Positions 2,159 through 15,089 are shown, counted from the first letter of the stretch. The stretch is 24,000 bases of DNA from Dyadobacter chenwenxiniae (GCF_022869785.1 NZ_CP094997.1:4965066-4989065), one strand, 5' to 3'. The notes: generated from the sequence alone by a model not told the origin. A program made the numbers and translations.

Positions 2159-3661
2159 CTACTTACTACTATTAGGGATTACAACAGAATGGAATCCATT
2201 TTGCAAGACAAATTCAAATACGGCTCCCTTTCCCGGTTCACTTAAAACCTCAATGGAAGAATGATGTAATTCAAGGATCTTTCGGACGATAGCCAACCCC
2301 AGTCCTATCCCATTCGAGGATGCGATATGCAGGTCGGCCTGTTTGTAGCGTTCGAAGATCTGCTCCTGATATTCCTTGGCTATCCCCACGCCGGTGTCCG
2401 TAACTCTTACCCTAACGCCGTTGCCGAGTTCGAGGAGGCCTACTGATATTTGCCCGCCATCCGGAGTAAATTTGAAAGCATTGTCAAGCAGGTTTTGGAA
2501 AACCCGCTCTGTCAGTGCGATATCCGCGAATACCGTCGGCAGAACGATGGGTGCTTCGAGTGTCAGGCGGATACTGCGTTCCGTGGCTTTCAGCTGGTAG
2601 GCACTGACAATGTCAGAGACCAGCTCGCCTATCGGAAACAGCTCTTTTTGCGGTGTAACGACATTGGCTTCCAGTTTCGAGTATTGGAACAATTGATCCA
2701 CCAACCCGGAAAGCCTTTTAGTGCCCTCGTGGACAATGGATAGATACCGGTCGGTTTCCGCGTGGGACAGGGAATCACCTTTGATCATCAGCGTTTCCAC
2801 ATAACCCTGCATAATCGAAAGCGGCGTCCGCAAGTCATGCGACACATTCGCGATCAGCTCCTGACGGAACCGATCGGCCGCAGTGATCTTTTCGATGTTA
2901 TCGACAATGACATCGGCCATATCATTGAAGGTAGAAGTGAGTACACCCAGATTACCCTTTGCGTAGCCACGTATCCTAGCTGAGTAGTCTCCATCCTTGA
3001 AGGTTTTCACTACGCCCGCAATGCTGCAGATGCTATCAGTGATCAGAAAAAAAGTCACTACCCCCACCACAAACGCCCCTAGCAGGGCCGCAAAAAATAT
3101 GTAAACAGCTAGCCGGAAATAAAGGTCATCATTGAGCGAGCCGAGAATCTCCTTTTGCTTTTCGCTTGCGAGTACCGCATATACATACCCCGCCACCTTC
3201 CCATTTTCAAAAACAGGTGCGACAGAGAAAATGCTTGCTTCGTCGGGATTTTTAGGATTATCTCCCAGCGGCCGCTTGCTTGAATCGGCCGCCAGCCATT
3301 CCCTGACCTTGGCCATGTCGACTTTGTTCATTTGAACGGTAGCTTGGGGTACTACATAATCGGTGATCTTGCCGAGTGTATCGAGCAGGTATACTTCCAC
3401 ACTCGGATTGGCCACCATCGTTGCATGTATGATATCGTGCGTAACCGTCGTATCAGGCTTTCCGTTTTTGATAGGTTGGGTAAAAGAGGCAAGGTGCCCC
3501 GCAATGTCACCATAAAGCTGCTGATGAGCGGCCATGTAATACGATTTGGAAAACCGCGATCCAATTAAGACGAACACCAGGGCAAGCACTAGTAAAAGGC
3601 TCGCAAATACGCCGCTGATCTTCCAGAATAAAAGGTTTCCACGGATGGTTTTTACAGACAT
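2159..3661 (-). CDS. Sensor histidine kinase (two TM helices, roughly 150-aa periplasmic loop, HAMP, HisKA, HATPase_c)
   Basis: H-box NVSHDLRTPLSIMQGY, N-box LLDNAFKFTP, G-boxes DTGVGI and GIGLGLAIV. Hydrophobic segments are ISGVFASLLLVLALVFVLIG and LAVYIFFAALLGAFVVGVVTFFLI. I chose the ATG at 3661 (MSVKTIRG...), which lies 1 nt after the regulator stop. The track start at 3691 would overlap the regulator gene. Confidence 0.9.
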   Translation of the reverse strand: MSVKTIRGNLLFWKISGVFASLLLVLALVFVLIGSRFSKSYYMAAHQQLYGDIAGHLASFTQPIKNGKPDTTVTHDIIHATMVANPSVEVYLLDTLGKITDYVVPQATVQMNKVDMAKVREWLAADSSKRPLGDNPKNPDEASIFSVAPVFENGKVAGYVYAVLASEKQKEILGSLNDDLYFRLAVYIFFAALLGAFVVGVVTFFLITDSICSIAGVVKTFKDGDYSARIRGYAKGNLGVLTSTFNDMADVIVDNIEKITAADRFRQELIANVSHDLRTPLSIMQGYVETLMIKGDSLSHAETDRYLSIVHEGTKRLSGLVDQLFQYSKLEANVVTPQKELFPIGELVSDIVSAYQLKATERSIRLTLEAPIVLPTVFADIALTERVFQNLLDNAFKFTPDGGQISVGLLELGNGVRVRVTDTGVGIAKEYQEQIFERYKQADLHIASSNGIGLGLAIVRKILELHHSSIEVLSEPGKGAVFEFVLQNGFHSVVIPNSSK

Positions 3662-3662
3662 A

Positions 3663-4394
3663 TTACAGGTCTTCATTAAATCGGTAGCCAATGCCCCAGG
3701 TGGTTAATACAAATGACGGATTGGAAACATCCACTTCAATTTTTCCTCTGAGCCGGTTAATATGTGTGTTAACCGTATGCTCATAGCCTTCGAAATCGTA
3801 ACCCCAAACCAGACTCAGCAGCTGTTTGCGGCTATAACTCCTGCCAGGATTGGAAGCCAGCAGGACGATCAGCTCAAATTCACGCGGCGAAAGCTCGATG
3901 CGCTCCCCGAGTAGCATAACTTTACGTTTCTCAATATCGATTTCAAGACCGGCAATGCTGATCTGCGGTGGCCGCGGCGTGCTATACCTGGCCTTTTCTT
4001 CGCTCCGGCGAAAAATGACGCGTACACGTGCAATAAATTCCCTGATGCTGAAGGGTTTGGTAAGGTAATCGTCGGCGCCTGTTTCAAGGCCCATAACCTT
4101 ATCAATTTCTTCTGACCGCGCAGTAAGCATCATTATTGGCGTTTGTCGGTCGTTCTGCCTTACCTTTCTGCACACTTCCATCCCATTCATGCCTGGCAGC
4201 ATTACATCCAGGATAATCAGCTCGAATGCCGAATCCAATGCCCTCTCAAGACCATTCTGCCCATTTTTTTCAGCAACCACCTTACATCCCAGATCAGATA
4301 GATGGATGGTCAGCAGCTCTGTGATATTGCTGTCGTCCTCAATGATCAAAACATTTCTTGTATCCATTTGCCCCCTGATTTTCTGCAAGTTCAT
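3663..4394 (-). CDS. OmpR/PhoB-family response regulator (receiver domain plus winged helix)
   Basis: VLIIEDD, LIILDVMLPGMNG, ADDYLTKPFS and the C-terminal LSPREFELIVLLASNPGRSYSRKQLL..VNTHINRLRGK..TTWGIGYRF. The alternative start M10 (MDTRNVLIIEDD) at 4367 is equally plausible. Confidence 0.9.
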   Translation of the reverse strand: MNLQKIRGQMDTRNVLIIEDDSNITELLTIHLSDLGCKVVAEKNGQNGLERALDSAFELIILDVMLPGMNGMEVCRKVRQNDRQTPIMMLTARSEEIDKVMGLETGADDYLTKPFSIREFIARVRVIFRRSEEKARYSTPRPPQISIAGLEIDIEKRKVMLLGERIELSPREFELIVLLASNPGRSYSRKQLLSLVWGYDFEGYEHTVNTHINRLRGKIEVDVSNPSFVLTTWGIGYRFNEDL

Positions 4395-4430: not shown

Positions 4431-4505
4431 TTATAATTCCGTAACGCCGGTGGGATATCGTCTCCGTTGTTTTGCATCATTCCAACACGCAAAACACAAC
4501 CGGAT

Positions 4506-5792
4506 ATGATCAAACCACTGCTTGGGCTATCGCTGACAGCCCTTATTTTCAGTTCTTGTACGAAGGACCACGATCCTCAACCACAGCCGAGGACTATTTC
4601 AATCGAGAATGTCCTTGACAGCAGACCGTTGGTACAGTCGGGAACATTCAAGGGGGCCGGCGCTCCCCCTGTAATCCTGCCCGGGCAATCCATATCTTTC
4701 TCATTTTCGGCATCCAAAAACCAGCGCCTGACCTTCGCCACCATGTACGGGTGGAGCAATGACCTGTTTTTTGCACCAGAAAATCCGGGTATAAGGCTCT
4801 ATGGTGACGACGGAACGCCCATTACAGGAGAAATTTCGTCGAAGATCAAACTATGGGATAACGGGACAAGGGTGAACGGCAAACCAGGAATGGCCCTCGT
4901 GCACCCTGGCACGGCAGAAGCTGCGAAACGAAACATCAAGGAAGTGAATGGCATGGACGACTATGGCCATGCATTTCTGCCCGCATCGCAATTGATGAAG
5001 GTGTCGCTAAATTATGACGGCAGTTCAATGTTCACTGTCACGATCAAAAACCAGTCAGGCGGTACGGCTAACGAAACACCATTCAGTCCAGGCAACTGGG
5101 CGATTTCCTATGTGGCGGGCAACGACCTGCTTTTGCCCGAACCGATCTATTCCAAAGATAAGGCTACAACGGAAGCATTGACACGCATTGCCGAAGCAGG
5201 CGACAATGGACCAATGAGTGCAATGCTGACCGGTCTGACAGGCATATTCACTCCGCTGTCGCCAATCCTTGTGATTGTTTACAACGGTAGTGAAAACCCT
5301 TTTTTCAAGTCCGGGGAAAACGACAGGGGCGAAGGATTGAAGGAATTGGCACAAAAAGGCAATGCCGACATGTTGGCTAAGGCCTTGACGGGTAAGGGTG
5401 GCGTTAAAAATGTTTACGTTCTCAAAGAACCTAACAGCACTGTGTTGTTGCCTAAAATCGGCGGAAATCCCGGCGGCAAAGTTTCCCAGTCACTGTCACT
5501 TATGCCCGGCGACCGCATCGCGATTGCAACCATGTACGGATTTTCGAACGACTGGTTTTTTGCCCCGAAAGGCAATGGTATTGACGGAAGCACCACGGGA
5601 GATGTTTCCAGCTCCATCGGATTATATGATAATGGTACGGCCATTGACCAATTTCCCGGTGCAGGTATTACCCAGTTTAATCTGGCTGGAACGCCGTTGG
5701 CAGAGAGTAAAGCCATTGCTCTGGTCCCCAACCCTAACCAATTCACCACGCTGCCAGCGATCGGCAGCATGATCAAAGTTACGCTGCAATAA
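4506..5792 (+). CDS. Spondin_N-like secreted lipoprotein with internally duplicated modules
   Basis: The ATG at 4506 gives MIKPLLGLSLTALIFSSC, a signal peptide with a lipobox Cys. There are two copies of the ATMYG(W/F)SND(L/W)FFAP...(L)(W/Y)DNGT module and two TP(F/L)SP modules. The segment TPLSPILVIVYNGSENPFFKSGENDRGEGLKELAQKGNADML resembles bacterial spondin-domain proteins. The track start at 4467 is a TTG. Confidence 0.75.
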   Translation: MIKPLLGLSLTALIFSSCTKDHDPQPQPRTISIENVLDSRPLVQSGTFKGAGAPPVILPGQSISFSFSASKNQRLTFATMYGWSNDLFFAPENPGIRLYGDDGTPITGEISSKIKLWDNGTRVNGKPGMALVHPGTAEAAKRNIKEVNGMDDYGHAFLPASQLMKVSLNYDGSSMFTVTIKNQSGGTANETPFSPGNWAISYVAGNDLLLPEPIYSKDKATTEALTRIAEAGDNGPMSAMLTGLTGIFTPLSPILVIVYNGSENPFFKSGENDRGEGLKELAQKGNADMLAKALTGKGGVKNVYVLKEPNSTVLLPKIGGNPGGKVSQSLSLMPGDRIAIATMYGFSNDWFFAPKGNGIDGSTTGDVSSSIGLYDNGTAIDQFPGAGITQFNLAGTPLAESKAIALVPNPNQFTTLPAIGSMIKVTLQ

Positions 5793-5837: not shown

Positions 5838-6305
5838 ATGAAAAAGCAAATCAGCATTTTTTTATTGCTCGCGCTCGGTCTTGGACAAGCCTTTGCGCAA
5901 ACGGTCGAGATTCGTAAAAAGCAATTTAACCTGGAAGGTTCCGGGCTGGCGATTCAAGGCTATGATCCGGTTGCATATTTTACGATGAACAAGGCACTTG
6001 AAGGTAAAAAGGAGTTTTCGACCAACTTCAACGGAACTGTCTATCGGTTTATGTCCAAACAGAACCGGGATGAATTTGCGGGTAACCCTGCCCGCTACGA
6101 ACCTCAGTATGGCGGCTGGTGTGCATTTGCAATGGGCAAGAAAGGGGAAAAGGTGGAAGTTGATCCCGAAACTTTCAAAGTCATTGACGGTAAGCTTTAT
6201 CTTTTTTACAATAAGTATTTCAACAACACCCTTAAAAGCTGGAATCAGGACGAAGCCCGTCTAAAAGCGCAGGCGAATAAGAACTGGAGCAAATTTGTAC
6301 CTTAA
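5838..6305 (+). CDS. Secreted YHS-domain protein of the Cys/Sec '(seleno)protein' type, copy 1
   Basis: Signal peptide MKKQISIFLLLALGLGQAFA. Motifs GYDPVAYF, YRFMSKQNRDEF..NP and PQYGGWCAFAM, then DGKLYLFYN. The conserved Cys is encoded by TGT. Confidence 0.8.
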   Translation: MKKQISIFLLLALGLGQAFAQTVEIRKKQFNLEGSGLAIQGYDPVAYFTMNKALEGKKEFSTNFNGTVYRFMSKQNRDEFAGNPARYEPQYGGWCAFAMGKKGEKVEVDPETFKVIDGKLYLFYNKYFNNTLKSWNQDEARLKAQANKNWSKFVP

Positions 6306-6320
6306 AATCCAAAATACATC

Positions 6321-6761
6321 ATGAGAAAAATTATTTTAGCAACGACTTTCATACTAACTGCATTGGGCAGTTATGCTCAAAAATCAGAGATATTCGCACC
6401 CGGTGGCAAAGCCATTAAAGGATATGACGTAGTGGCATTCTTCAAAGATGCCGGACCTGTTGCCGGGGCCGATAGCTTATCCTACCAATACAAAGATGCC
6501 CAGTGGCTATTTGCCAACCGCGCCAACCTGGATGCATTCAAAGCAAATCCCGACATGTATATGCCCCAATACGGCGGCTATTGTGCCTACGGAACATCCC
6601 AAGGTCACAAAGCTCCTACTGAAACGGATACCTGGACCATCGTCAACGATAAATTATACTTCAATTACAACCAGAAAGTGAAGGAAAACTGGTCGAAAAA
6701 GTGGGATGAGCTCATTAGGAAAGCCGATACAGAGTGGCCACTGATCAAAGACAAGCAATAA
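6321..6761 (+). CDS. Secreted YHS-domain protein, copy 2 (diverged tandem paralogue)
   Basis: Signal peptide MRKIILATTFILTALGSYA. Motifs GYDVVAFF, NP and PQYGGYCAYG, then NDKLYFNYN. It starts 15 nt after copy 1. Confidence 0.8.
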   Translation: MRKIILATTFILTALGSYAQKSEIFAPGGKAIKGYDVVAFFKDAGPVAGADSLSYQYKDAQWLFANRANLDAFKANPDMYMPQYGGYCAYGTSQGHKAPTETDTWTIVNDKLYFNYNQKVKENWSKKWDELIRKADTEWPLIKDKQ

Positions 6762-7159
6762 TGAGGCGTAAAACTCAAAAGACCTGGACATGGCTGCTCA
6801 GATTGGCCTCCGCCGGGATCATGCTTCAAACCGTGTTCTTCAAATTTACCGCAGCCCCGGAATCCGTTTACATCTTTTCCAGTCTGGGGATGGAGCCATG
6901 GGGCCGTATACTGGTCGGCGTTTTTGAACTGGTCGCTTCGGTATTGATTCTGGTGCCACGCACCACAGCTTACGGAGCCTTGGTGGGGATCGGCGTAATG
7001 ACCGGCGCGATATTTATGCACCTTACACGTCTGGGTATTGAAGTGCAAGGCGATTCGGGGCAGCTGTTTATTTACGCGGTGCTGGTGATGGGAAGCTGTT
7101 TGATTCTGGCCTATTGGCAACGTAGCAGTTTGTCAGGCATTAGAATGCGTGAACATTAA
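6761..7159 (+). CDS. DoxX-family integral membrane protein
   Basis: MRRKTQKTWTWLLRLASAGIMLQTVFFKFT..GRILVGVFELVASVLILVPRTTAYGALVGIGVMTGAIFMHL is a four-helix DoxX-like pattern. Its ATG overlaps the YHS-2 stop (TAATG at 6759-6763). The track start at 6734 is upstream and lies inside YHS-2. Confidence 0.75.
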   Translation: MRRKTQKTWTWLLRLASAGIMLQTVFFKFTAAPESVYIFSSLGMEPWGRILVGVFELVASVLILVPRTTAYGALVGIGVMTGAIFMHLTRLGIEVQGDSGQLFIYAVLVMGSCLILAYWQRSSLSGIRMREH

Positions 7160-7212
7160 TTGATCAGCCGGTGCCTTGCGAGGTACTGGCTGATTTTGAC
7201 CATACGATTGAT

Positions 7213-7719
7213 ATGAACAGACTAATAACAACATCACTGATTCCACTGCTGGAACAACTCGGCGATGTCCTGAGCAGGCTTAGCGATGTGCAGTATATCA
7301 GCAAAATTCCCGTATTGTCGGAAGCTTCGCTGGGTATGCATGTGCGGCACATCATTGAGTTTTTCCAGGAGCTCGAACAGGGCTATCTTGTCGGCTGTGT
7401 GGATTACGATGCCAGACGCCGGGAAAAGGCTATTGAAAACCACCTGGATTGCGCTATATTAAAACTCCGCCAAATTATCGCGAACCTCAAATATGATAAT
7501 AAAACACTGCTGCTGGCTTATAAACCGAGCAGCGGAACGCCGAATTTTCATGTTCAGACTAGCTACGAGCGCGAGCTGCTGTACAACCTCGAACACACAG
7601 TGCACCATATGGCGATATTGAAGATCGGTATCAGAGCTATATCTACCATTGAGCTGGCTGAGGATTTCGGCGTTGCCAATTCGACAATCCGATACCATCA
7701 GGATAAATGTGTACAGTAA
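7213..7719 (+). CDS. DinB-superfamily (DinB_2-like) protein
   Basis: Helical-bundle His pattern LGMHVRHIIEFFQEL ... NLEHTVHHMAILKIG. ATG at 7213. The track ORF begins at a TTG at 7171. Confidence 0.65.
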   Translation: MNRLITTSLIPLLEQLGDVLSRLSDVQYISKIPVLSEASLGMHVRHIIEFFQELEQGYLVGCVDYDARRREKAIENHLDCAILKLRQIIANLKYDNKTLLLAYKPSSGTPNFHVQTSYERELLYNLEHTVHHMAILKIGIRAISTIELAEDFGVANSTIRYHQDKCVQ

Positions 7720-9494
7720 CCTACATCCCGGCTGAAAACAGCATTTTCCTCACCTCTAACCGGGACGAACGCATTGACCGGGCTCCGGCAGTGCCGCCCG
7801 AGTGCTATTGCGTAAATAAAATTGAAATGATCTACCCCAAAGATGCGCAGGCAGGCGGGACATGGATCGTTCTGAACGGTGACCGTTCGGCAGCAGTGCT
7901 CTTAAACGGCGGTTTTAAAAATCATTCTTACCAGACGCCGTACCGCAAAAGCCGGGGACTCATCATGCTGGATATAATGGGTACAAATTCGCCTGCCGAC
8001 CATTTCCAGGCTATGGACCTTAAAGCCATTGAGCCATTCACCATCATTCTTTTAACCCAAGGAAGACTTCGGCGTTGCACGTGGGACGGGGACCATAAAC
8101 ATCTCACTGAGCTCGACGCGACCAAACCACATATCTGGGCGTCAGTAACATTATATGACCGCGATATGCAATTACAACGTGAAAACGCCCTAATACAGTG
8201 GCTCAAAGAGACCAGGCCGGTAAAACCGGAAGCTGTGGCGGACTTTCACCTAGGCGCCAACATGAGGTATGAGACCAGCAATGCGCCTCATAATGCAAAT
8301 ATCCGGACGGTGAGTGTCACCTTGTTAGCGCTTTCGACTGACAGGCGGGCTAGCGTGCTTTATCATGATCTGCACTCGGGCGAAGTCGCTGCCAAACGCA
8401 TGCAAACACAGGCTCCTGGCACGCCATTATTGTTTAACAGTTTTTATTGGAAAACCCGGAGATTTTGGATCCGTCTCAGACATTGGGAATACTGGCCATT
8501 CGCATGCTTGTATCTTCCCCTGGTCCCGCTGTGGTTATGGCTCAGCTTGCGGGCCCGGTCATTGTTGTTTTTCAGTGCGGCAAATCCCGGGATAGCATAC
8601 TCCGGTTTTATCCAGGAACGCAAAAGCGATATTTACCCATTATTGCCGGAAGGGTTATATCCAAAAGGCGTACTTTGCAAAACCGGAATGTCGGCTGGGG
8701 AGATCAATTCGGTGCTCCGCGAGTCCTCTCTTGATTTCCCTTTGATTGCCAAACCCGATATCGGCGAGCGCGGCATTCAAGTTGAACTTTTACGTAAGCC
8801 GGCTGACTTGGACACCTATCGATCTCGCACCAAGGTCGACTTTCTATTACAGGAGTATATCGACTATTCCCATGAGATCGGCATTTTTTATTACCGTATT
8901 CCAGGAAATAAAAACGGGCAACTATCAGGTATTGTCGGGAAAGAGTTTTTAAGCGTGACCGGAGATGGACAGACCAGTCTGCTGTCTCTACTGATGCAAA
9001 ATGACCGAGCTGTTTTGCAGCTGCACGCATTGGCCGCTGTCTTTGGCGATCAATTTGATAACATTCCTGACTCAGGGGAGATACTTACCCTGGTACCGTA
9101 CGGCAATCATATCCGTGGATCCAGGTTCATTGACCTGCATAGCCGCATAACACCTGGCCTAACAGATATGATCGATAAGGTATGCACACAGGTGCCCGGC
9201 TTTTATTTCGGCAGACTGGATATCCGCTTTAAAAATTGGGAAGAACTCGAAGCCGGAAGACATTTTTCGATCATCGAATTGAATGGTACAGGCAGCGAAC
9301 CCACACACATTTACGACCCCGCCCACTCGTTGTTTTTCGCATGGAAGGAGATTTACCGACATTGGAAAATCGTTTTCAAGATCAGCATGATCAATGCTCA
9401 TAATGGCAAACAGCCTTTGATGAGCCTGAAAGAAGGTTTGGAAATGAAAAGGGCGCACGACAAGCATTTAAATCTAATGCAAGCCCAACATTAA
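7707..9494 (+). CDS. Fusion protein: NRDE/TANGO2-family domain with N-terminal Cys, a hydrophobic segment, and an ATP-grasp ligase domain
   Basis: The N-terminus is MCTVTYIPAENSIFLTSNRDE, with Cys2 and the literal NRDE motif. GGTWIVLN, AAVLLNG, KSRGLI and EPFTIILL are collinear with TANGO2/NRDE proteins. Residues 263-281 (WPFACLYLPLVPLWLWLSL) are hydrophobic. The C-terminal half has ATP-grasp hallmarks: FPLIAKPDIGERGIQVELL, LLQEYIDYSHEIGIFYY and FSIIELNGTGSEPTHIYDP. The ATG overlaps the DinB gene by 13 nt. Confidence 0.75.
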   Translation: MCTVTYIPAENSIFLTSNRDERIDRAPAVPPECYCVNKIEMIYPKDAQAGGTWIVLNGDRSAAVLLNGGFKNHSYQTPYRKSRGLIMLDIMGTNSPADHFQAMDLKAIEPFTIILLTQGRLRRCTWDGDHKHLTELDATKPHIWASVTLYDRDMQLQRENALIQWLKETRPVKPEAVADFHLGANMRYETSNAPHNANIRTVSVTLLALSTDRRASVLYHDLHSGEVAAKRMQTQAPGTPLLFNSFYWKTRRFWIRLRHWEYWPFACLYLPLVPLWLWLSLRARSLLFFSAANPGIAYSGFIQERKSDIYPLLPEGLYPKGVLCKTGMSAGEINSVLRESSLDFPLIAKPDIGERGIQVELLRKPADLDTYRSRTKVDFLLQEYIDYSHEIGIFYYRIPGNKNGQLSGIVGKEFLSVTGDGQTSLLSLLMQNDRAVLQLHALAAVFGDQFDNIPDSGEILTLVPYGNHIRGSRFIDLHSRITPGLTDMIDKVCTQVPGFYFGRLDIRFKNWEELEAGRHFSIIELNGTGSEPTHIYDPAHSLFFAWKEIYRHWKIVFKISMINAHNGKQPLMSLKEGLEMKRAHDKHLNLMQAQH

Positions 9495-9761
9495 CTACGT
9501 TTTCAAAAGGAAGCCGTGCCCTGGGTACCGATTTTTCAATTAAGAAATCAGATTCGCAAAGAAGGTTAAGTTTGCGCCGGTGAACTCCTAATCGAAAGGG
9601 CTGCCTGTTTTGTGCGCGAAAGTAATTTTTCCGTCATTCACTCAGAGCCTTCGCAACAACAATAACATAACGCACAATAATATACGTAACTGATGTGTTT
9701 CAAAAATTTGGTAACCCCGAAGGGCAACACATAACTGTTAATCTCTTATAAGAACTTGCTT

Positions 9762-10373
9762 TCAGGGATTGATTTTTGAGAATATATACACAGCCGTGTA
9801 AGGAACGTCGACGGTTTCCAGCGCATTGCCTGGCGGGACAGCAGGTGCCCTCCCTCCTTTCGTTGCAATGCGCTGAATATAATCGGTATCTTCAAATCTG
9901 CCATTGGGTATTGTTCCTGTCTTTGGCATTAAGAGCAGCCAATCGATGTGCTGCGGATCTACGCTAGCAGTTTTCGCCGGAGAAAACTGCTGGCCTACGA
10001 TCAACGAATTCGTCGCATCAACCGTCCAGGATGGCCCGCCAAAATGCCGTCCCACTTTCGCATTTGAAACAGCGAATAAATCAGCTTCTGGCTCAATAAA
10101 TACCCATTCATATGCTGTCGGATAGCTATTCTGTCGTTCCTGAGCCTTGTATTTTTGCACGCCTTCTGCAAAATAAACTGCCACTGGACTGTTTCCACTA
10201 GGATTAGCGGGCAATGCTACCGCCGCAGGGATAGGCAATGCCAGAGCCTGGGAAATTTTAAAAGCTGGCGATGACGTGTCCGGATCAACATGGTCGGTAC
10301 ATGCGGTCAGAAAGACTGCGGCGAATACAGCCATTCTCACCTGAGCTGTGAACGAATGAAATATTTTGAACAT
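9762..10373 (-). CDS. DUF3455-like secreted lipoprotein
   Basis: Signal peptide and lipobox MAVFAAVFLTAC. GRHFGGPSWTVDATNSLIVG..IDWLLL..TDYIQRIATKGGRAPA..VDVPYTAVYIFS follows the DUF3455 pattern as I recall it. Confidence 0.7.
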   Translation of the reverse strand: MFKIFHSFTAQVRMAVFAAVFLTACTDHVDPDTSSPAFKISQALALPIPAAVALPANPSGNSPVAVYFAEGVQKYKAQERQNSYPTAYEWVFIEPEADLFAVSNAKVGRHFGGPSWTVDATNSLIVGQQFSPAKTASVDPQHIDWLLLMPKTGTIPNGRFEDTDYIQRIATKGGRAPAVPPGNALETVDVPYTAVYIFSKINP

Positions 10374-10401
10374 TGTAATCAGTGTTTACACCATGAATGG
10401 A

Positions 10402-10932
10402 TCACGGTAATTTAGTATTGTGAGGAGCGAATATGCCGTGCGTATTATCCAGTTCAACCCAGGCATGCAACGTCCACAAATTAAATTCTGTGTTGATCTC
10501 CCATTCATCGTCCTTACCCGTAAAACCTTCGGGGACAGCAGGCGGATTTTTTATGTCCTTGATAGGCGTGGCGTACTCGACTGCTACCAGTTTCATTGTA
10601 TCCTTACCATAAGGCGCATACAAGAGTATTTCGGGCTTTCCTATTTCGAATTTATTGTCTAGCAGATCTGTATTCAGGTAATGAAAACCCATTTGCGTCC
10701 GGTAACCCGTTACTTCCTGATCGTAACCTTCTGCAATAGCTTTGTTCAGATCCCGGAAAGGAATAACGGCCTGCCGGACCTGATTTAGTTCCTGCTCCAC
10801 CACTGGGTCGTGATCCTTCCGCTGCTCTTCGGTGCAGGATGTGAAGAAAATACTTATGGCACCGACGAAAAGGTAGGTAGGAAAGTTTTTGACCAAAGTC
10901 AGGTATGCATTAAAGTTTAATGTTGTTTTCAT
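10402..10932 (-). CDS. Hypothetical lipoprotein (no family recognised)
   Basis: 176 aa with signal peptide YLFVGAISIFFTSC followed by the acidic TEEQ. The conserved-looking core is AIAEGYDQEVTGYRTQMGFHYLNTDLLD..KPEILLYAP..KLVAVEYATP..LWTLHAWV. It sits in the same tight cluster as its neighbours. Confidence 0.6.
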   Translation of the reverse strand: MKTTLNFNAYLTLVKNFPTYLFVGAISIFFTSCTEEQRKDHDPVVEQELNQVRQAVIPFRDLNKAIAEGYDQEVTGYRTQMGFHYLNTDLLDNKFEIGKPEILLYAPYGKDTMKLVAVEYATPIKDIKNPPAVPEGFTGKDDEWEINTEFNLWTLHAWVELDNTHGIFAPHNTKLP

Positions 10933-10983
10933 TTTAATAATTATCAGTAGATGAATTTTTCTGAAATGATTTGCCCCTGTTGA

Positions 10984-12456
10984 CTATAAATTCTGGTACC
11001 AGATTTCGCCCAAGCTATTCACTGCCCATGGTGTTCCGAGGTGGTTAACAGCCAGGGTAACCGCAGTTCCCGGCATGAGGCTCCAATCCACCCCGTTCCA
11101 CCGAGATAAGGTATAACCTCCGTAAACAGGGGTGCGGCCCGTAATGTAAACTGAGCCTTCGGGCCCGGCGAAAATATCAGTAGCTAAGCCAGGAACCTCT
11201 GACCAGTGTGCGCCGCTACCGCCCAGGAAGAAAATTTTACCCGTATTGTCGACTATCCATGGCATACCCTGCGCTCCTGCTGCAATACGCACTGCTCCGC
11301 CGGGCAATTGGGTCCAGTTGCTACCATTCCACTTGTATATGCAATTACCTCCCGTAGCTGCGGCCCCGCCGATCATATACACCGAACCATCGCCCGCCGC
11401 CGCAATGTCTTTGGCAGACCCCGGCATTCGATCCCATAAACGTGTATTGTAATTATAACGGTAAATTCCACCTACAGAGTTAATAATCCAGGGTACATCG
11501 CCTGCCCCCGCCGTAATCTTTCTCGCCGATCCGGGCAACTTGAACCATTGATTGAATGAGCCGAGTTGATAGATACCAAAATCAGCGCCTATGGGATCTT
11601 TACCAATGGCAAACACCGACCCCAGCGGCCCTACCGCAATATCAGTGGCAGAGCCGGCCATCTGGATCCATTCTCCATTGGGATACATTGCCTGGACAGC
11701 CTTCTTGTCCCCAAAAGTGAAACCCGTCCAGTTGCTTACTACGGAGTTCATGACTGAATGAAGGTCAGAATTTGGTGTACCGGGAATTGGCTTCTCAATG
11801 ATGCCGTCCTGATGCAGGTCAGTATGCGCAATACCCAGCGTATGTCCCAGCTCGTGGGCCATCGTAGTCAATTTTTGTTCCGTGGGAATGTAGCTATACT
11901 TCAAATTGATGATAATGCTTGAACCAGGCTTTCCTTCAAGGTAAGGAAACTGAGCGACGGCTATTTTATCACTTGTAGCATCAATTCTGGCCACGATTTC
12001 CATGTCCGCCCAACGGAGCTCACTCACCTCCGAAAATTTGACTTTGACACCTTTCAGGAGATTCCATTGCGCTAAAGCAGTTCTTGTGACCGCAACCCAT
12101 TCTGGTGGAGTACCTGGACGCATATAAATTTTGATATTCCGCACCCAGGTATCGGACACGAGCCAACGTCTGCGACGATGTGCGCTGGCCAGATTTACGT
12201 TATCCTTGTATTGCTTCTCAGCCTCCGTTTTAGATATTAAAATATCACCTTCAATGACAAACGTGGTATCCCTTGAATTATAAACGACTGCTTTTTCCGA
12301 TGTACCCATCGCCTCGGTAAGAAAACCTTTTAACACTTCAATGGATATCGAATCACGGATTTCCTTGGGAACGACTGTTTCAACTGGAACAGCGTCCTGG
12401 TGACAGGCATACATACATAGGGTAGCGAAGATTACTAGCAGGACATTTTTTTTCAT
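10984..12456 (-). CDS. Metzincin metalloprotease (M57 'HEIGH'-like) fused to a six-blade tectonin/tachylectin-like beta-propeller
   Basis: Signal peptide MKKNVLLVIFATLCMYAC. Zinc site MAHELGHTLGIAHTD (HExxHxxGxxH) with a downstream SVMNS Met-turn candidate. Six W-x-x-(M/L/V)-(P/A)-G-x-A-x-x-I-x-x-G repeats begin at W263, W304, W341, W381, W418 and W458. Confidence 0.8.
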   Translation of the reverse strand: MKKNVLLVIFATLCMYACHQDAVPVETVVPKEIRDSISIEVLKGFLTEAMGTSEKAVVYNSRDTTFVIEGDILISKTEAEKQYKDNVNLASAHRRRRWLVSDTWVRNIKIYMRPGTPPEWVAVTRTALAQWNLLKGVKVKFSEVSELRWADMEIVARIDATSDKIAVAQFPYLEGKPGSSIIINLKYSYIPTEQKLTTMAHELGHTLGIAHTDLHQDGIIEKPIPGTPNSDLHSVMNSVVSNWTGFTFGDKKAVQAMYPNGEWIQMAGSATDIAVGPLGSVFAIGKDPIGADFGIYQLGSFNQWFKLPGSARKITAGAGDVPWIINSVGGIYRYNYNTRLWDRMPGSAKDIAAAGDGSVYMIGGAAATGGNCIYKWNGSNWTQLPGGAVRIAAGAQGMPWIVDNTGKIFFLGGSGAHWSEVPGLATDIFAGPEGSVYITGRTPVYGGYTLSRWNGVDWSLMPGTAVTLAVNHLGTPWAVNSLGEIWYQNL

Positions 12457-12543
12457 AGCATTTGAATTTGGTTTGAGAGATTAGTTAAAAGAGTATGACA
12501 ATCTGATCCCATAAAAAGGATAAGTGTAAAAAAGTTGAGTATG

Positions 12544-13590
12544 TTATCGATGAATTTTTCGGATGCGTGAGTTTCTGACGTCTGCTACGAAAATATTCCC
12601 GGCAGCATCCATGGCAATTCCGCTGGGCTGATTGAATTTGGCCTCGTCGGCAGCGCCATCTGCAAAGCCGACCGTGCCATTACCTGCGATGGTGCTCACT
12701 ATACCTTCCGGGGTAACTTTTCGAATGGCGGAATTCAAATCCCCTATATATAAATTTCCGTCTTTGTCTATGGCAATTCCTTCCGGGTTATGAAACCGCA
12801 CTTCGCCACCCTTTCCATCGATATATCCGATTTCCGACGTGCTGCCAGCAAGCACACTGACTGCTCCCTCAGGAGTAACTTTCCGTATCACAAACCCGCC
12901 AGTGTCAGCCACATACAGGTTTCCTACTTTATCTATTTCAATACCTTCCGGGAATCCAAAACCAGTAGCAAATGTGCTGACGGTCCCATCCTGGGTTACT
13001 TTTCGAATGCAATGGTTGGCGCCGTCGCTCACATACAAATTTCCTTGCGGATCGAGCACTAAGTCAGCCGGAAAATTAAACTGTGCTGCCTTGCCTACAC
13101 CGTTTTTAAATCCGATAACACCGTTGCCTGCAATGGTACTGACGACTCCGTCACGACTGATTTTACGGATCAAACTATTACCAGAGTCCGCCACAAAAAC
13201 ATTTCCGTTGCCATCAACCACTAATCCATGCGGATAGCTGAATAACGCTTCGGAAACTGACCCGTCATTACTTCCGAAAATGCTGTCCCCTGCAACAGTT
13301 GTGACAATGCCATGAGGTGTGATCTTCCTGATCCGATTGTTATTTCCATCGGCCACGTAAACATTCCCGGCGGCGTCTGTGGTTAAACCATAGGCATCTG
13401 AAAAAGCAGCATCCTTCCCGTCTCCGTCAGCAAAGCCATAGATTCCGCTACCAGCGAGGGTGCTCACTGTGTATGGCCTTAAAACCTCGTCAGCGGGTGG
13501 CGGTTCCACATTTTCAACAATACTACTGCATGATCCTGCAATTAATAAAGCCATCGTTAAAAGCAAGTTGGATATAAATGTCGTGTGCAT
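12544..13590 (-). CDS. NHL-repeat beta-propeller lipoprotein (six repeats)
   Basis: Six repeats of the form G(L/I)xxDxxGN(V/L/I)(Y/F)(V/I)(A/S/G)DxxNxxIRK(I/V)(T/S)xxGxVST(I/V)AG. The ATG at 13590 gives MHTTFISNLLLTMALLIAGSC and lies 2 nt after the upstream gene's stop. The track start at 13614 overlaps that gene. Confidence 0.85.
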   Translation of the reverse strand: MHTTFISNLLLTMALLIAGSCSSIVENVEPPPADEVLRPYTVSTLAGSGIYGFADGDGKDAAFSDAYGLTTDAAGNVYVADGNNNRIRKITPHGIVTTVAGDSIFGSNDGSVSEALFSYPHGLVVDGNGNVFVADSGNSLIRKISRDGVVSTIAGNGVIGFKNGVGKAAQFNFPADLVLDPQGNLYVSDGANHCIRKVTQDGTVSTFATGFGFPEGIEIDKVGNLYVADTGGFVIRKVTPEGAVSVLAGSTSEIGYIDGKGGEVRFHNPEGIAIDKDGNLYIGDLNSAIRKVTPEGIVSTIAGNGTVGFADGAADEAKFNQPSGIAMDAAGNIFVADVRNSRIRKIHR

Positions 13591-13592
13591 AG

Positions 13593-14822
13593 TTACCAGT
13601 AGCTTAACCACCATTTGGTAGATTGATTGGCTCTCTTATATTGATCGAACTTCTTGCAAATCGGATACAGTATCAAAACCACCGCTATCCAAATGATGTA
13701 TACGATTGGCAAATTGAAACCATAACCCTTCAAAGCAATTGCGTTGTTAACGCTGGTCGTTAATATCATATCCGCCCATTCATAACCGGATAGCACTGCC
13801 GCACCCATTGCCATCATGTGAATCAAATACAAGTGGGCTAGGTAGTAGAACATGGGTACCCGTCCGAACACACTTACCACCGATGACCATTTACCAGAAG
13901 GTTTTTCAATCAATGCAAGAAAAGTAAGTGCCGGCCCAAGCGTCATGAGTGCATAAAGCAGCGACGGCGGATACTTGCTGACATTTAAAAAAGAAAGCAA
14001 ACTGAGTAGGCCGGATTTTTGTAATGACCAATGCGCGGCGTCACCATACCAGTTATTACATCTTAAAATAACAAACAGCACCATGGCCCCAAGCCCCACG
14101 TAGATGAATGTGGCCCTCCTTTTCGCGGAATGATAATTAGATAGGTATAAATTGCCCACGGCATAGCCCGTTGCCATAATACCAAGCCAGGGTAGCAATG
14201 CATATCGGACTGAAAAGGAGAAGTTTCCAAAAGTGAAGTAACCCGGCTCGTGGATCAATGCCCATAAAAACGATCCAAAACCACCACCGGGAACATTCAC
14301 ATTATCCAGCAAATTGTGACCCGCAATTAGTAAGATGCCCACTACGGAAATGACTTTTTTATTCAGATAAATAATGGCTGACATAAAAACCATACTCACC
14401 CCCGTTACCCAGATTACTGCCAGATTGAAATAAGGATACGAAGGATTGAATGTCCATTCAAATGTCACAATAAAGCATTCAGCCAGAATGAGCCATATGC
14501 CTCTTATCAGCAGGAAAAAAGATAATTGTTTTCGGCTTCGCTTTGCGCCATACAGACAAGCTGAAATACCTGCAAGGAAAATAAATATAGGCGCACAGAA
14601 ATGTGTAATTAATCTAGTGAAGAAAAGAGCAACATTGGTTTGCGTCAAATCTGTGGGACTGTAAAAGAAAGCATCAACATGGAAGTAATCCCGCACATGA
14701 TCCAGCGCCATTACTATCATTACTATACCTCTTAACAAGTCGATAGCGTAAATCCTTTTGCTTTTTAATGCAAGGGGCTCTTGATTATTAATTGGATATG
14801 CTGATTTACTAATTGTTGACAT
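13593..14822 (-). CDS. DUF1624 / heparan-alpha-glucosaminide N-acetyltransferase-like polytopic membrane protein
   Basis: RIYAIDLLRGIVMIVMALDHVRDYF is the signature N-terminal helix, followed by roughly ten hydrophobic segments. The track start at 14840 is a TTG. The first ATG (MSTISKSAY) is at 14822. Confidence 0.8.
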   Translation of the reverse strand: MSTISKSAYPINNQEPLALKSKRIYAIDLLRGIVMIVMALDHVRDYFHVDAFFYSPTDLTQTNVALFFTRLITHFCAPIFIFLAGISACLYGAKRSRKQLSFFLLIRGIWLILAECFIVTFEWTFNPSYPYFNLAVIWVTGVSMVFMSAIIYLNKKVISVVGILLIAGHNLLDNVNVPGGGFGSFLWALIHEPGYFTFGNFSFSVRYALLPWLGIMATGYAVGNLYLSNYHSAKRRATFIYVGLGAMVLFVILRCNNWYGDAAHWSLQKSGLLSLLSFLNVSKYPPSLLYALMTLGPALTFLALIEKPSGKWSSVVSVFGRVPMFYYLAHLYLIHMMAMGAAVLSGYEWADMILTTSVNNAIALKGYGFNLPIVYIIWIAVVLILYPICKKFDQYKRANQSTKWWLSYW

Positions 14823-14997
14823 AAATTGAGTGTGTTCCAATGAATCGATCTATATGAATATTCCGGTCGGCTAATGAAGATTTAAATGCTGATGAATGTG
14901 CTGATTAAAGCAGAAAAACTTGTTGATGCAAAACAAGTGCAGAATCTTGTTACCGATATAAGAGGTATTCCCTATTTTGCAATATTTGCCACTCCTA

Positions 14998-15024
14998 TAT
15001 TACAATTCAAGCAACTATTACAAT
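14998..15024. repeat. Perfect 9-bp direct repeat TATTACAAT x2 in the divergent promoter region
   Basis: TATTACAAT occurs at 14998-15006 and 15016-15024 (18-nt period), about 65-90 nt upstream of the LuxR-type regulator ATG. It may be an operator. Confidence 0.3.
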
Positions 15025-15089
15025 AATTGCTACGTATCCACTCAAACGTGTAAACAAGAGGCTTACACTCCTACTTTAATCAATTAGCC

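Follow-up and report, generated by a model that had tools for sequence, protein, structure and literature searches.

A stretch of 24,000 nucleotides from Dyadobacter chenwenxiniae (GCF_022869785.1, NZ_CP094997.1:4965066-4989065; this whole stretch is referred to below as the window, and positions are counted from its first letter) contains a gene in which a domain of the NRDE/TANGO2 family and an ATP-grasp ligase are joined in a single polypeptide. The follow-up of a preliminary description, which had been made from the sequence alone, revealed a protein of three parts, namely an NRDE/TANGO2 domain of the cysteine N-terminal-nucleophile (Cys-Ntn) type, a Trp/Pro-rich hydrophobic helix and a divergent ATP-grasp domain with intact catalytic motifs. 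From its relatives we infer that it is the fused version of a conserved module composed of a DinB metalloprotein, an NRDE Cys-Ntn hydrolase and a membrane-anchored ATP-grasp ligase, and the reading that is favored here, with a probability of roughly 0.4, is that of a membrane-bound ligase/amidase pair that remodels the head groups of N-acyl-amino-acid lipids. The gene and its parts are the following:

7707-9494, plus strand: NRDE::ATP-grasp fusion gene, an unbroken open reading frame (ORF) of 595 codons for 595 amino acids, first residues MCTVTYIPAENSIFLTSNRDE.
7707-8411, plus strand: NRDE/TANGO2-type Cys-Ntn domain, residues 1-235 (Pfam, Foldseek and invariant columns).
8442-8480, plus strand: basic amphipathic helix before the anchor, residues 246-258, WKTRRFWIRLRHW (a helix in the AlphaFold2 model).
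8484-8549, plus strand: WEYWP motif and Trp/Pro-rich hydrophobic helix, residues 260-281, the predicted membrane anchor (hydropathy and invariant columns).
8604-9326, plus strand: ATP-grasp core, approximately residues 300-540, with K349, Q382, E390, R503, D505, E524 and N526 (Foldseek, family-level Pfam and motif alignment).
9330-9482, plus strand: two long C-terminal helices, residues 542-592 (secondary structure of the model; conserved across the family).

Full-length relatives of the fusion protein, with identities of 46-98%, were found in Dyadobacter, Larkinella, Chitinophaga, Puia, Pedobacter, Olivibacter and others, the closest (98%) being that of Dyadobacter fanqingshengii / sp. CY107. 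The best 120 matches were 558-623 aa long, stemmed from many independent genomes and metagenomes, and also included Flavitalea and Sediminibacterium; a CTV N-terminus was present in 119 of them (118 MCTV, one VCTV), the sole one with a differing, shorter N-terminus being P0016 (558 aa). In all, the fusion was present in more than 120 protein clusters of independent assemblies. Because the same full-length form recurs in many independent genomes and metagenomes, and because the fused forms make up a coherent clade (see below), an assembly artefact was ruled out as the source of the fusion, which is a natural one as had been supposed. Profiles of the fusion and of the neighbouring DinB protein yielded no significant match when searched against PDB sequences, so that a comparison of folds was needed. 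An AlphaFold2 model was built from an alignment of 46 homologues and reached a predicted local distance difference test score (pLDDT) of 88.5 and a predicted template-modelling score (pTM) of 0.61; invariant columns were scored in 46 sequences.

The N-terminal half was matched by Pfam TANGO2 (PF05742) at residues 10-119, with 38 bits for the full protein and 40.6 bits for the half by itself against a cut-off of 22.6, the alignment spanning only profile positions 13-127 of 257. Using Foldseek, this half was matched to human TANGO2 (8sv7/9bwa) with E-values of 2e-9 to 1e-8, a probability of 1.0 and template-modelling (TM) scores on the target of 0.60-0.62, and directly to isopenicillin-N acyltransferase (2x1d; E 1e-7). 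The residues M1, C2, T3, V4, T5, R19, D20, E21 and N67 were invariant in the 46 sequences, N18 of the NRDE motif was conserved in at least 90% of them, and the NRDE protein started with [M/V]CTV in 78 of the 78 module loci described below. The invariant N67 is located within a VLLNG motif and, judged from the sequence, is a plausible counterpart of Asn75 of human TANGO2, for which Asn75, Asn157 and Lys166 were named as catalytic residues (PMC13044924). In that structural paper from 2026, TANGO2 was proposed to be a Cys-Ntn hydrolase of fatty-acid derivatives, with acid ceramidase, NAAA, bile-salt hydrolase and isopenicillin-N acyltransferase as its relatives (PMC13044924).

A different role has been reported for the TANGO2 homologue HtpA of Shewanella, described as membrane-associated and as trafficking haem (PMC10470608). 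If the NRDE domain acted like HtpA, it would deliver haem to envelope proteins with the ATP-grasp domain as an accessory, and the periplasmic DM13 and YceI proteins encoded near the module could then be cofactor-related. However, whether TANGO2 handles haem is a matter of dispute (PMC12782551, PMC13044924), the Cys-Ntn residues C2, R19, D20, E21 and N67 are invariant here, cytochrome-c maturation genes are not linked to the module, and such a role would not account for the association with a ligase, DinB and lipid acyltransferases, all of which makes haem handling very unlikely.

The hydrophobic segment that the preliminary description had placed at residues 263-281 was recovered as the sole stretch of the fusion protein with a 19-residue Kyte-Doolittle mean above 1.2 (1.49), with a Wimley-White octanol energy of -16.5 kcal/mol, and W260, E261, W263, P264, P271 and W276 of this element are invariant. 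The basic amphipathic helix that precedes it (residues 246-258) is conserved at the N-terminus of stand-alone ATP-grasp homologues. Since most proteins of the ATP-grasp family start with the same WEYWP motif and helix, an element that is found in stand-alone relatives as well as in those fused to LysE, VTT or alpha/beta-hydrolase (ABH)-VTT, the segment is the N-terminal signature of the ATP-grasp family and not a linker.

No curated ATP-grasp sequence model reached its cut-off on the window protein: the RimK/ATP-grasp matches of the C-terminal half remained sub-threshold (17-18.5 bits, cut-off 21), and TIGR00768 (RimK family) scored 17 bits against a cut-off of 143. With Foldseek, this half was matched to cyanophycin synthetase, the best structural match, and to GshF, Ddl and ArgX, with E-values of 1e-7 to 2.6e-10 (entries 7wae, 3ln6, 7ta5, 3vpb and Ddl). 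Among 21 diverse members of the family, 16 were matched by Pfam RimK (best E 1e-6), nine by PF02222 and seven by TTL. K349 sits in PLIAKPDIGERG, and Q382, E390, R503-x-D505 and E524-x-N526 are invariant too; in alignments they coincide with the motifs through which ArgX and GshF bind nucleotide and Mg, and the wider family retains K99, Q132, E140, R253, D255, E274 and N276 (numbering of alignment A4). It was because of the Foldseek matches, the invariant motifs and the family-level Pfam matches that the C-terminal half was recognized as a divergent member of the ATP-grasp superfamily which no Pfam model covers. Both enzymatic halves had been postulated in the preliminary description and both held up, the ligase through its fold, its motifs and the matches of its family rather than through Pfam matches of the window protein itself. 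From what is known of the superfamily, an acyl-phosphate mechanism is to be expected.

When residues 251-595 were searched against 1.84 billion representative proteins, 2812 matches were obtained at E <= 1e-3 and 1133 at E <= 1e-30. Most members of the family are about 345-360 aa long and begin with the WEYWP motif and hydrophobic helix, and other architectures comprise LysE::ATP-grasp, VTT(DedA)::ATP-grasp, alpha/beta-hydrolase::VTT::ATP-grasp and ATP-grasp::MORN. The precomputed Pfam field was blank for 120 of the 120 stand-alone homologues listed, and many of the stand-alone members are labelled "D-alanine--D-alanine ligase" in RefSeq/UniRef (e.g., P0270, P0429, P0460 and P0482).

This naming, and the presence of Ddl among the Foldseek matches, would make the ligase a Ddl paralogue acting in peptidoglycan synthesis, which is scarcely credible: Dala_Dala_lig_C was matched by five of the 21 family members and then weakly, Ddl was not found by the PDB sequence profile search, and the operon context is unrelated to murein synthesis. 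Only about 55 residues and the membrane helix come before the ATP-binding lysine, K349, so that the N-terminal substrate domain of Ddl is missing. Ddl identity was rejected, its defining features (the N-terminal substrate domain and Dala_Dala_lig_C) not being present, and since the Ddl N-domain is lacking, the Ddl matches are weak, the gene context differs and there is no Pfam coverage, the Ddl name was probably assigned too liberally and then carried over into thousands of entries. The nearest sequence families (RimK with 16 of 21, TTL with seven of 21, and ArgX/LysX) and the top structural match, cyanophycin synthetase, would in turn suit a tail ligase of the RimK/TTL/LysX type, which at the membrane would extend a protein or small peptide C-terminally by amino acids that NRDE then trims. 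The gap between score and cut-off for TIGR00768 does not favor this, a conserved small-peptide or carrier-protein gene was not seen in the module loci, the substrates cleaved by NRDE's structural relatives are acyl amides other than peptides (PMC13044924), and the linkage to lipid synthases described below is left unexplained; a tail ligase is thus decidedly improbable.

The distribution of the module was followed by scanning one genome per species with alignment A1 (the very diverse alignment A4 has no sufficiently conserved stretch), which yielded at least 598 relatives, all of them Bacteroidota save for evidently mis-binned metagenome-assembled genomes (MAGs). The best 80 of these loci were annotated with our own ORF calls and hidden Markov models, and 78 were classifiable:

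54 of 78 loci: split, adjacent NRDE and ATP-grasp genes with a gap of 0-12 nt (Flavobacterium, Ferruginibacter, Sediminibacterium and others).
21 of 78 loci: fused NRDE::ATP-grasp (Dyadobacter, Chitinophaga, Puia, Pedobacter, Mucilaginibacter and others).
3 of 78 loci: NRDE absent (L079, L085 and L086).

In a neighbour-joining tree of the ATP-grasp module (without bootstrap), the fused forms made up one clade with the three NRDE-less forms nested within it, and the split forms were basal. A fused clade exists in Bacteroidota, but fusion is not the usual state; the fused form is a derived minority, and split adjacent genes are commoner. In the NRDE-less loci of Parachryseolinea silvisoli (L085, 10034-11128), Dawidia cretensis (L086, 10004-11095) and a Cytophagales MAG (L079, 9989-11062), DinB lies directly before an ATP-grasp gene for 357-364 aa, and the Parachryseolinea and Dawidia ORFs begin with MRTVT/MRTVA, apparently a remnant of MCTVT left behind when NRDE was deleted in frame from a fused ancestor. 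Two contigs filed under other names, L043 (as a Brevundimonas vancanneytii MAG) and P0038 (as a Citrobacter freundii MAG), bear a typical Chitinophagales-type operon and are most likely mis-binned or mislabelled MAG contigs.

The gene directly upstream of the fusion had been described as DinB-like and as translationally coupled to it through a 13-nt overlap, and both points were corroborated:

7213-7719, plus strand: DinB-fold metalloprotein gene, 168 aa, with ATG at 7213 and a possible GTG at 7171 (Pfam matches of homologues, model and Foldseek).
7707-7719, plus strand: dual-coding overlap of 13 nt between the DinB stop and the NRDE start, ATGTGTACAGTAA (from the sequence; DinB TAA at 7717-7719).

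The window copy of DinB had no Pfam match of its own; of its homologues, 28 of 44 were matched by DinB_2 and 14 of 44 by DinB. Its AlphaFold2 model had a pLDDT of 93.9, and the four-helix-bundle DinB fold was borne out by the top Foldseek matches, all of them DinB/YfiT structures (2f22, 3gor, 3dka, 2qe9, 6iz2 and 1rxq, with TM scores on the target of 0.62-0.68). H43, H46, E49, E127, H128, H131 and H132 are invariant, among them the His metal triad H46, H128 and H132, and the 168 aa hold no further domain. The 13-nt overlap was kept in 74 of the 78 related loci, and the DinB protein ended with CAQ or CVQ in 69 of them. Since the M-C-T-V start of NRDE is invariant, the out-of-frame C-terminus of DinB is fixed as C-A/V-Q-stop, and the Cys that seems conserved at the end of DinB may merely reflect this dual coding and have no function of its own. 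At the locus L091 (266-2539), a DinB gene belonging to this subfamily (GQHTRHIIEF, NLEHVIHH) lies 3 nt ahead of a LysE::ATP-grasp gene, without an intervening NRDE, and from this locus the coupling of DinB to the ligase appears to be tighter than that of NRDE.

The module was also encountered in other phyla, where the analysis went beyond the preliminary description, which had included neither the fusions of the ligase to LysE, DedA/VTT and alpha/beta-hydrolase nor operons with OlsB-, OlsA- and OlsF-like genes. Its order was DinB-NRDE-[ABH::VTT::ATP-grasp] in L092, DinB-DoxX-[VTT::ATP-grasp]-TANGO2 in an Acidobacteriota MAG, and DinB-VTT-NRDE-ATP-grasp in several metagenome loci. A metagenome scan with an alignment of the VTT-type ATP-grasp yielded 536 relatives, of which the best 80 loci were annotated, and the recurrent operon consisted of OlsB-like, OlsA-like, DinB, NRDE and [ABH::]VTT::ATP-grasp genes, often with DoxX and YHS. 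Counts were taken from the 22 well-flanked loci, i.e., those with at least 3 kb upstream and at least 2.5 kb downstream of the ligase gene:

OlsB-like gene: 18 of 22 loci.
DinB: 17 of 22 loci.
OlsA-like gene: 15 of 22 loci.
NRDE: 13 of 22 loci.
OlsB-like gene, DinB and NRDE jointly: 11 of 22 loci.

The synthase-like neighbours were matched by Pfam PF13444, PF01553 and PF19576+PF13444. In L095, the start of the ATP-grasp gene overlaps an OlsA-like acyltransferase gene by 4 nt, with an OlsB-like N-acyltransferase gene before the latter, and at the P0252 locus an OlsF-like gene adjoins. In the Acidobacteriota locus L093 (2070-4869), an amidohydrolase of the Amidohydro_1 family (with a faint HutI-type match) and a gene of the PF00221 ammonia-lyase family are encoded on the same strand before the module, which may be a coincidence or a hint on the supply of an amine or amino acid. 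The OlsB/OlsA/OlsF-type operons point to membrane amino-acid lipids rather than to a soluble thiol. In this field two reactions lack an enzyme: no gene is known for the ATP-dependent transfer of taurine to the carboxyl group of ornithine lipid, and glycine lipid is an intermediate toward Ser-Gly lipid whose serine-adding enzyme is not named (PMC12971839). Di- and tripeptide head groups have been found in Bacteroidota, and GlsB homologues were reported in the four Bacteroidota orders that carry the module (PMC12971839).

Under the aminolipid reading, the reactions would take place at the cytoplasmic face of the inner membrane. The ATP-grasp half would phosphorylate the free carboxylate of an N-acyl-amino-acid lipid head group (of the ornithine, lysine or glycine type) to an acyl phosphate and would then couple an amine to the activated carboxylate, thereby extending the head group, a chemistry that would serve for Ser-Gly lipids or taurine-ornithine lipid. 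After removal of Met1, the Cys of the NRDE half would become the N-terminal nucleophile and, like its structural relatives, would hydrolyse or transfer an amide bond, in this case within that class of lipids. With synthetase and amidase combined in a single polypeptide, in parallel to the glutathionylspermidine synthetase/amidase (GspSA), the cell could adjust how much of the modified lipid is present; LysE or DedA would move the substrate or product, and DinB could provide a metal-dependent hydrolase, transferase or oxidase step. The pairing of an amide-cleaving nucleophile with an amide-forming ligase, as originally suggested, is still the best mechanistic frame. A bolder version, in which the module is an undescribed head-group remodelling system with ATP-grasp as the missing ligase and the NRDE/TANGO2 proteins as lipid-amide hydrolases or transacylases, and in which the ligase adds serine to glycine lipid to give flavolipin, or taurine or another (possibly sulfur-bearing) amine to ornithine lipid, is as a whole doubtful.

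The module is usually accompanied by DoxX, by secreted YHS proteins and by a small polytopic membrane protein (LysE or DedA/VTT). The upstream neighbours in the window are as follows:

6734-7159, plus strand: DoxX-family membrane protein gene (Pfam DoxX_2 and DoxX).
5838-6305 and 6321-6761, plus strand: two tandem genes of secreted YHS-domain (seleno)proteins (NCBIfam NF041384, 142 and 145 bits).
4467-5792, plus strand: Spondin-domain lipoprotein gene (NCBIfam NF038123, 209 bits).
2159-4394, minus strand: divergent pair of an OmpR-type response regulator (3663-4394) and a histidine kinase (2159-3691), candidate regulators (Pfam).

In Bacteroidota the usual order is YHS (one or two copies, before DoxX in most loci), DoxX, DinB, NRDE and ATP-grasp, followed by LysE in about half of the loci; unlike in many relatives, no LysE gene follows the ligase in the Dyadobacter of the window. 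A DoxX gene precedes DinB in most Bacteroidota loci and recurs in loci from Acidobacteriota and metagenomes. Each of the YHS proteins of the window (5838-6761) has a single Cys, in a GG[WY]CA motif, a position that is reportedly selenocysteine in some members of NF041384. In Dyadobacter and some Chitinophaga, the transcription unit of the cluster possibly begins with the spondin gene, and the spondin family f31 precedes YHS in L009-L013. The regulator/kinase pair and the spondin gene are conserved beside the cluster in Dyadobacter, Chitinophaga arvensicola and Puia; typing of the pair with NCBIfam gave generic OmpR and histidine kinase matches, with no metal-sensor or specific subfamily. Other neighbours that recur in Bacteroidota (by eye or Pfam) are DM13, YceI, outer-membrane barrels, peroxiredoxin, MsrB, CMD/AhpD and thioredoxin, the recurrent regulators are ECF sigma/anti-sigma, Crp and AraC, and an alpha/beta-hydrolase accompanies the module in the Ferruginibacter group.

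In Pedobacter and Mucilaginibacter, YHS and DoxX are separated by a stand-alone CoaB-like paralogue (phosphopantothenate--cysteine ligase domain), which scores 185 bits against the CoaB half of TIGR00521. It was seen in L002 (5403-6071), L021, L034 and L045 (family f38) and once in a metagenome (L139), and it is lineage-restricted. A pantothenate/CoA connection has been reported for TANGO2. The locus L089 (1-11700) encodes a LysE::ATP-grasp protein, 46% identical to the C-terminal half of the window protein, in a long same-strand cluster with CMD, aldo-keto reductase, an AhpC-like protein, a Rieske-TPP enzyme, a Na/H exchanger, MsrA, an alpha/beta-hydrolase and a glutaredoxin-fused pyridine-nucleotide disulfide reductase; DinB and NRDE are not found nearby.

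It is on such neighbours that the main rival of the aminolipid reading is built, a sharpened form of the low-molecular-weight-thiol idea of the preliminary description, namely a soluble thiol/redox metabolite pathway in which the ATP-grasp ligase makes an amide-linked thiol conjugate, NRDE is its amidase (on the model of GspSA or the Mca/Bca S-conjugate amidases), DinB is a thiol S-transferase, and LysE exports the product to feed periplasmic redox proteins. The DinB fold with its His triad, whose structural matches include mycothiol S-transferase and YfiT, is compatible with this, as are the redox neighbours of Bacteroidota (YHS (seleno)protein, DoxX, peroxiredoxin, MsrB, CMD, thioredoxin and ECF sigma/anti-sigma), the LysE::ATP-grasp gene inside an AhpC/MsrA/glutaredoxin-reductase cluster, the CoaB-like cysteine-ligase paralogue within the Pedobacter/Mucilaginibacter operon, and the redox-switched amidase cysteine of GspSA as a precedent (PMC6272389). 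However, the ligase is always membrane-anchored and was repeatedly fused to DedA/VTT, LysE or alpha/beta-hydrolase, OlsB/OlsA-type lipid operons enclose the module in 18 of the 22 well-flanked loci, DinB is without an FGE-sulfatase domain, no glutamate-cysteine ligase is nearby, the CoaB-like gene is lineage-restricted, and no thiol-biosynthesis gene is consistently linked. A thiol pathway was accordingly considered unlikely, though it might be reconciled with the aminolipid reading if the amine that is added carried sulfur.

Several points weigh against the aminolipid reading. OlsB-, PlsC- and VTT-like genes were not found within about 10 kb in 89 of 89 Bacteroidota-type loci, the window included, so that the linkage to aminolipid synthases applies to the VTT-type module (18 of 22) and not to the window and its nearest kind, in which the neighbours are instead of the periplasmic redox type (YHS (seleno)protein, DM13, YceI, peroxiredoxin, MsrB, CMD and thioredoxin). 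The metagenome sample consisted of the best 80 matches to one VTT-type query and is biased toward one clade of the family, and OlsB, OlsA and OlsF were the best NCBIfam matches of the synthase-like genes, yet all below the equivalog cut-offs. NRDE was lost in L079, L085 and L086 and is absent beside some LysE::ATP-grasp genes, and the ligase therefore does not strictly need NRDE in cis. The inter-domain confidence of the fusion model is modest (pTM 0.61), and with a true single-pass helix NRDE and ATP-grasp would face different sides of the membrane; the anchor is more likely to be monotopic or re-entrant, since NRDE has no signal peptide and needs cytoplasmic removal of its Met, and the ligase needs ATP.

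If the bolder version of the aminolipid reading is right, it would provide the first operon-anchored biochemical function for the TANGO2 family, the loss of which leads to a severe metabolic disease in humans and the role of which is contested between haem trafficking, acyl-CoA/lipid metabolism and a Cys-Ntn hydrolase activity. Bacterial genome context has hardly been used for this question so far, and the coupling of NRDE to DinB, its adjacency or fusion to the ligase and the OlsB/OlsA-type operons constitute independent comparative evidence for an enzymatic role on lipid amides, with NRDE-bearing bacteria as genetically tractable test systems. Under the bolder version, the redox-type neighbours (DoxX, the YHS selenoprotein family and DinB) could be tied to a membrane-anchored protective lipid. 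The module furthermore supplies concrete gene candidates for two orphan reactions, the ATP-dependent transfer of an amine to the ornithine-lipid carboxyl group and the addition of serine to glycine lipid, and a large ATP-grasp family (thousands of clusters) has been defined that is not covered by Pfam and is mostly labelled D-Ala-D-Ala ligase by RefSeq, probably wrongly. The folds themselves are known; what is new is the conserved module, the fusion series, the uncovered membrane ATP-grasp family and the aminolipid-operon link. Literature searches on NRDE/TANGO2 with ATP-grasp, on DinB/DoxX/ATP-grasp, on YHS/DoxX and on ATP-grasp with ornithine lipid or aminolipid returned, among the papers that were searchable, no description of the combination or of the module, and the study of bacterial TANGO2 makes no mention of the latter (PMC10470608).

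Downstream of the fusion gene, a terminator-like element comes first, and the stretch 9762-17687 beyond it is unrelated to the cluster in content and orientation:

9516-9528, plus strand: weak terminator-like hairpin and T-run, 22 nt past the stop (consensus scan; the regional total of such sites is not above that of shuffled sequences).
9762-10373, minus strand: DUF3455 gene.
10402-10932, minus strand: unannotated lipoprotein-like ORF of 176 aa.
10984-12456, minus strand: M57 metallopeptidase fused to Tectonin repeats.
Within 9762-17687: NHL-repeat protein and HGSNAT-like acyltransferase.
15090-17687, plus strand: AAA+/LuxR regulator of 865 aa.

Compared with known systems, the N-terminal half shares with human TANGO2 and the NRDE family the PF05742 match above threshold, Cys2, the NRDE motif and the alpha-beta-beta-alpha Ntn fold, but the Pfam profile covers only its N-terminal 110 residues, its identity to human TANGO2 is about 12%, and it either shares a polypeptide with a ligase or is encoded in translational adjacency to one, with coupling to DinB in addition. 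Acid ceramidase, NAAA, bile-salt hydrolase and isopenicillin-N acyltransferase, which cleave or transfer acyl-amine amides, have the fold class and the N-terminal Cys nucleophile in common with it, whereas the similarity does not extend to the sequence level, and these enzymes mature via autoproteolysis or removal of a signal or propeptide, while here the Cys directly follows Met1. The RimK, LysX-ArgX, Ddl, GshB and cyanophycin-synthetase ligases have the same ATP-grasp fold and Lys...Arg-x-Asp...Glu-x-Asn motifs as the C-terminal half. In the latter, however, the WEYWP helix and a short alpha/beta segment replace the usual N-terminal substrate domain, two extra C-terminal helices are present, and the family to which it belongs is associated with the membrane and shows distinct fusions of its own (LysE, VTT and ABH).

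The loose resemblance to ergothioneine synthesis that the preliminary description had pointed out was not sustained. EgtB has a DinB fold and EgtC is an Ntn-type amidohydrolase with Cys2, but EgtB needs an FGE-sulfatase domain that the 168-aa DinB does not have, EgtA is a GCS2 ligase and not an ATP-grasp enzyme, NRDE is not a class-II glutamine amidotransferase, and EgtD is not linked. The EgtA/EgtB/EgtC pathway was rejected, since an FGE-sulfatase-bearing EgtB, a GCS2 ligase and EgtD were not seen in 169 related loci.

With the aminolipid systems (OlsBA, OlsF, GlsBA and OlsHI), the common ground is that OlsB/OlsA/OlsF-like genes are operon partners of the homologous module, and OlsI is an alpha/beta-hydrolase, as is one fusion partner of the ligase family. 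DinB, NRDE and this ATP-grasp family are, in contrast, not described aminolipid enzymes, and the link is one of gene neighbourhood only. The predicted amide formation on a head-group carboxylate would fit the orphan ATP-dependent taurine transferase that makes cerilipin (PMC12971839). The GspSA of E. coli and the trypanothione synthetase-amidase likewise combine, in a single chain of about 600 aa, a cysteine-nucleophile amidase at the N-terminus with an ATP-grasp-type carboxylate-amine ligase at the C-terminus, and these two parts make and break one amide bond (PMC6272389, PMC2427367). Homology to GspSA was rejected, as its amidase has a CHAP/papain-like fold and the N-terminal domain here is an NRDE Ntn domain, so that the architecture is convergent; GspSA is also soluble, whereas a hydrophobic anchor lies between the domains of the Dyadobacter protein, whose substrates are probably lipidic. 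GspSA is nevertheless the closest architectural precedent for a synthetase and an amidase on one polypeptide.

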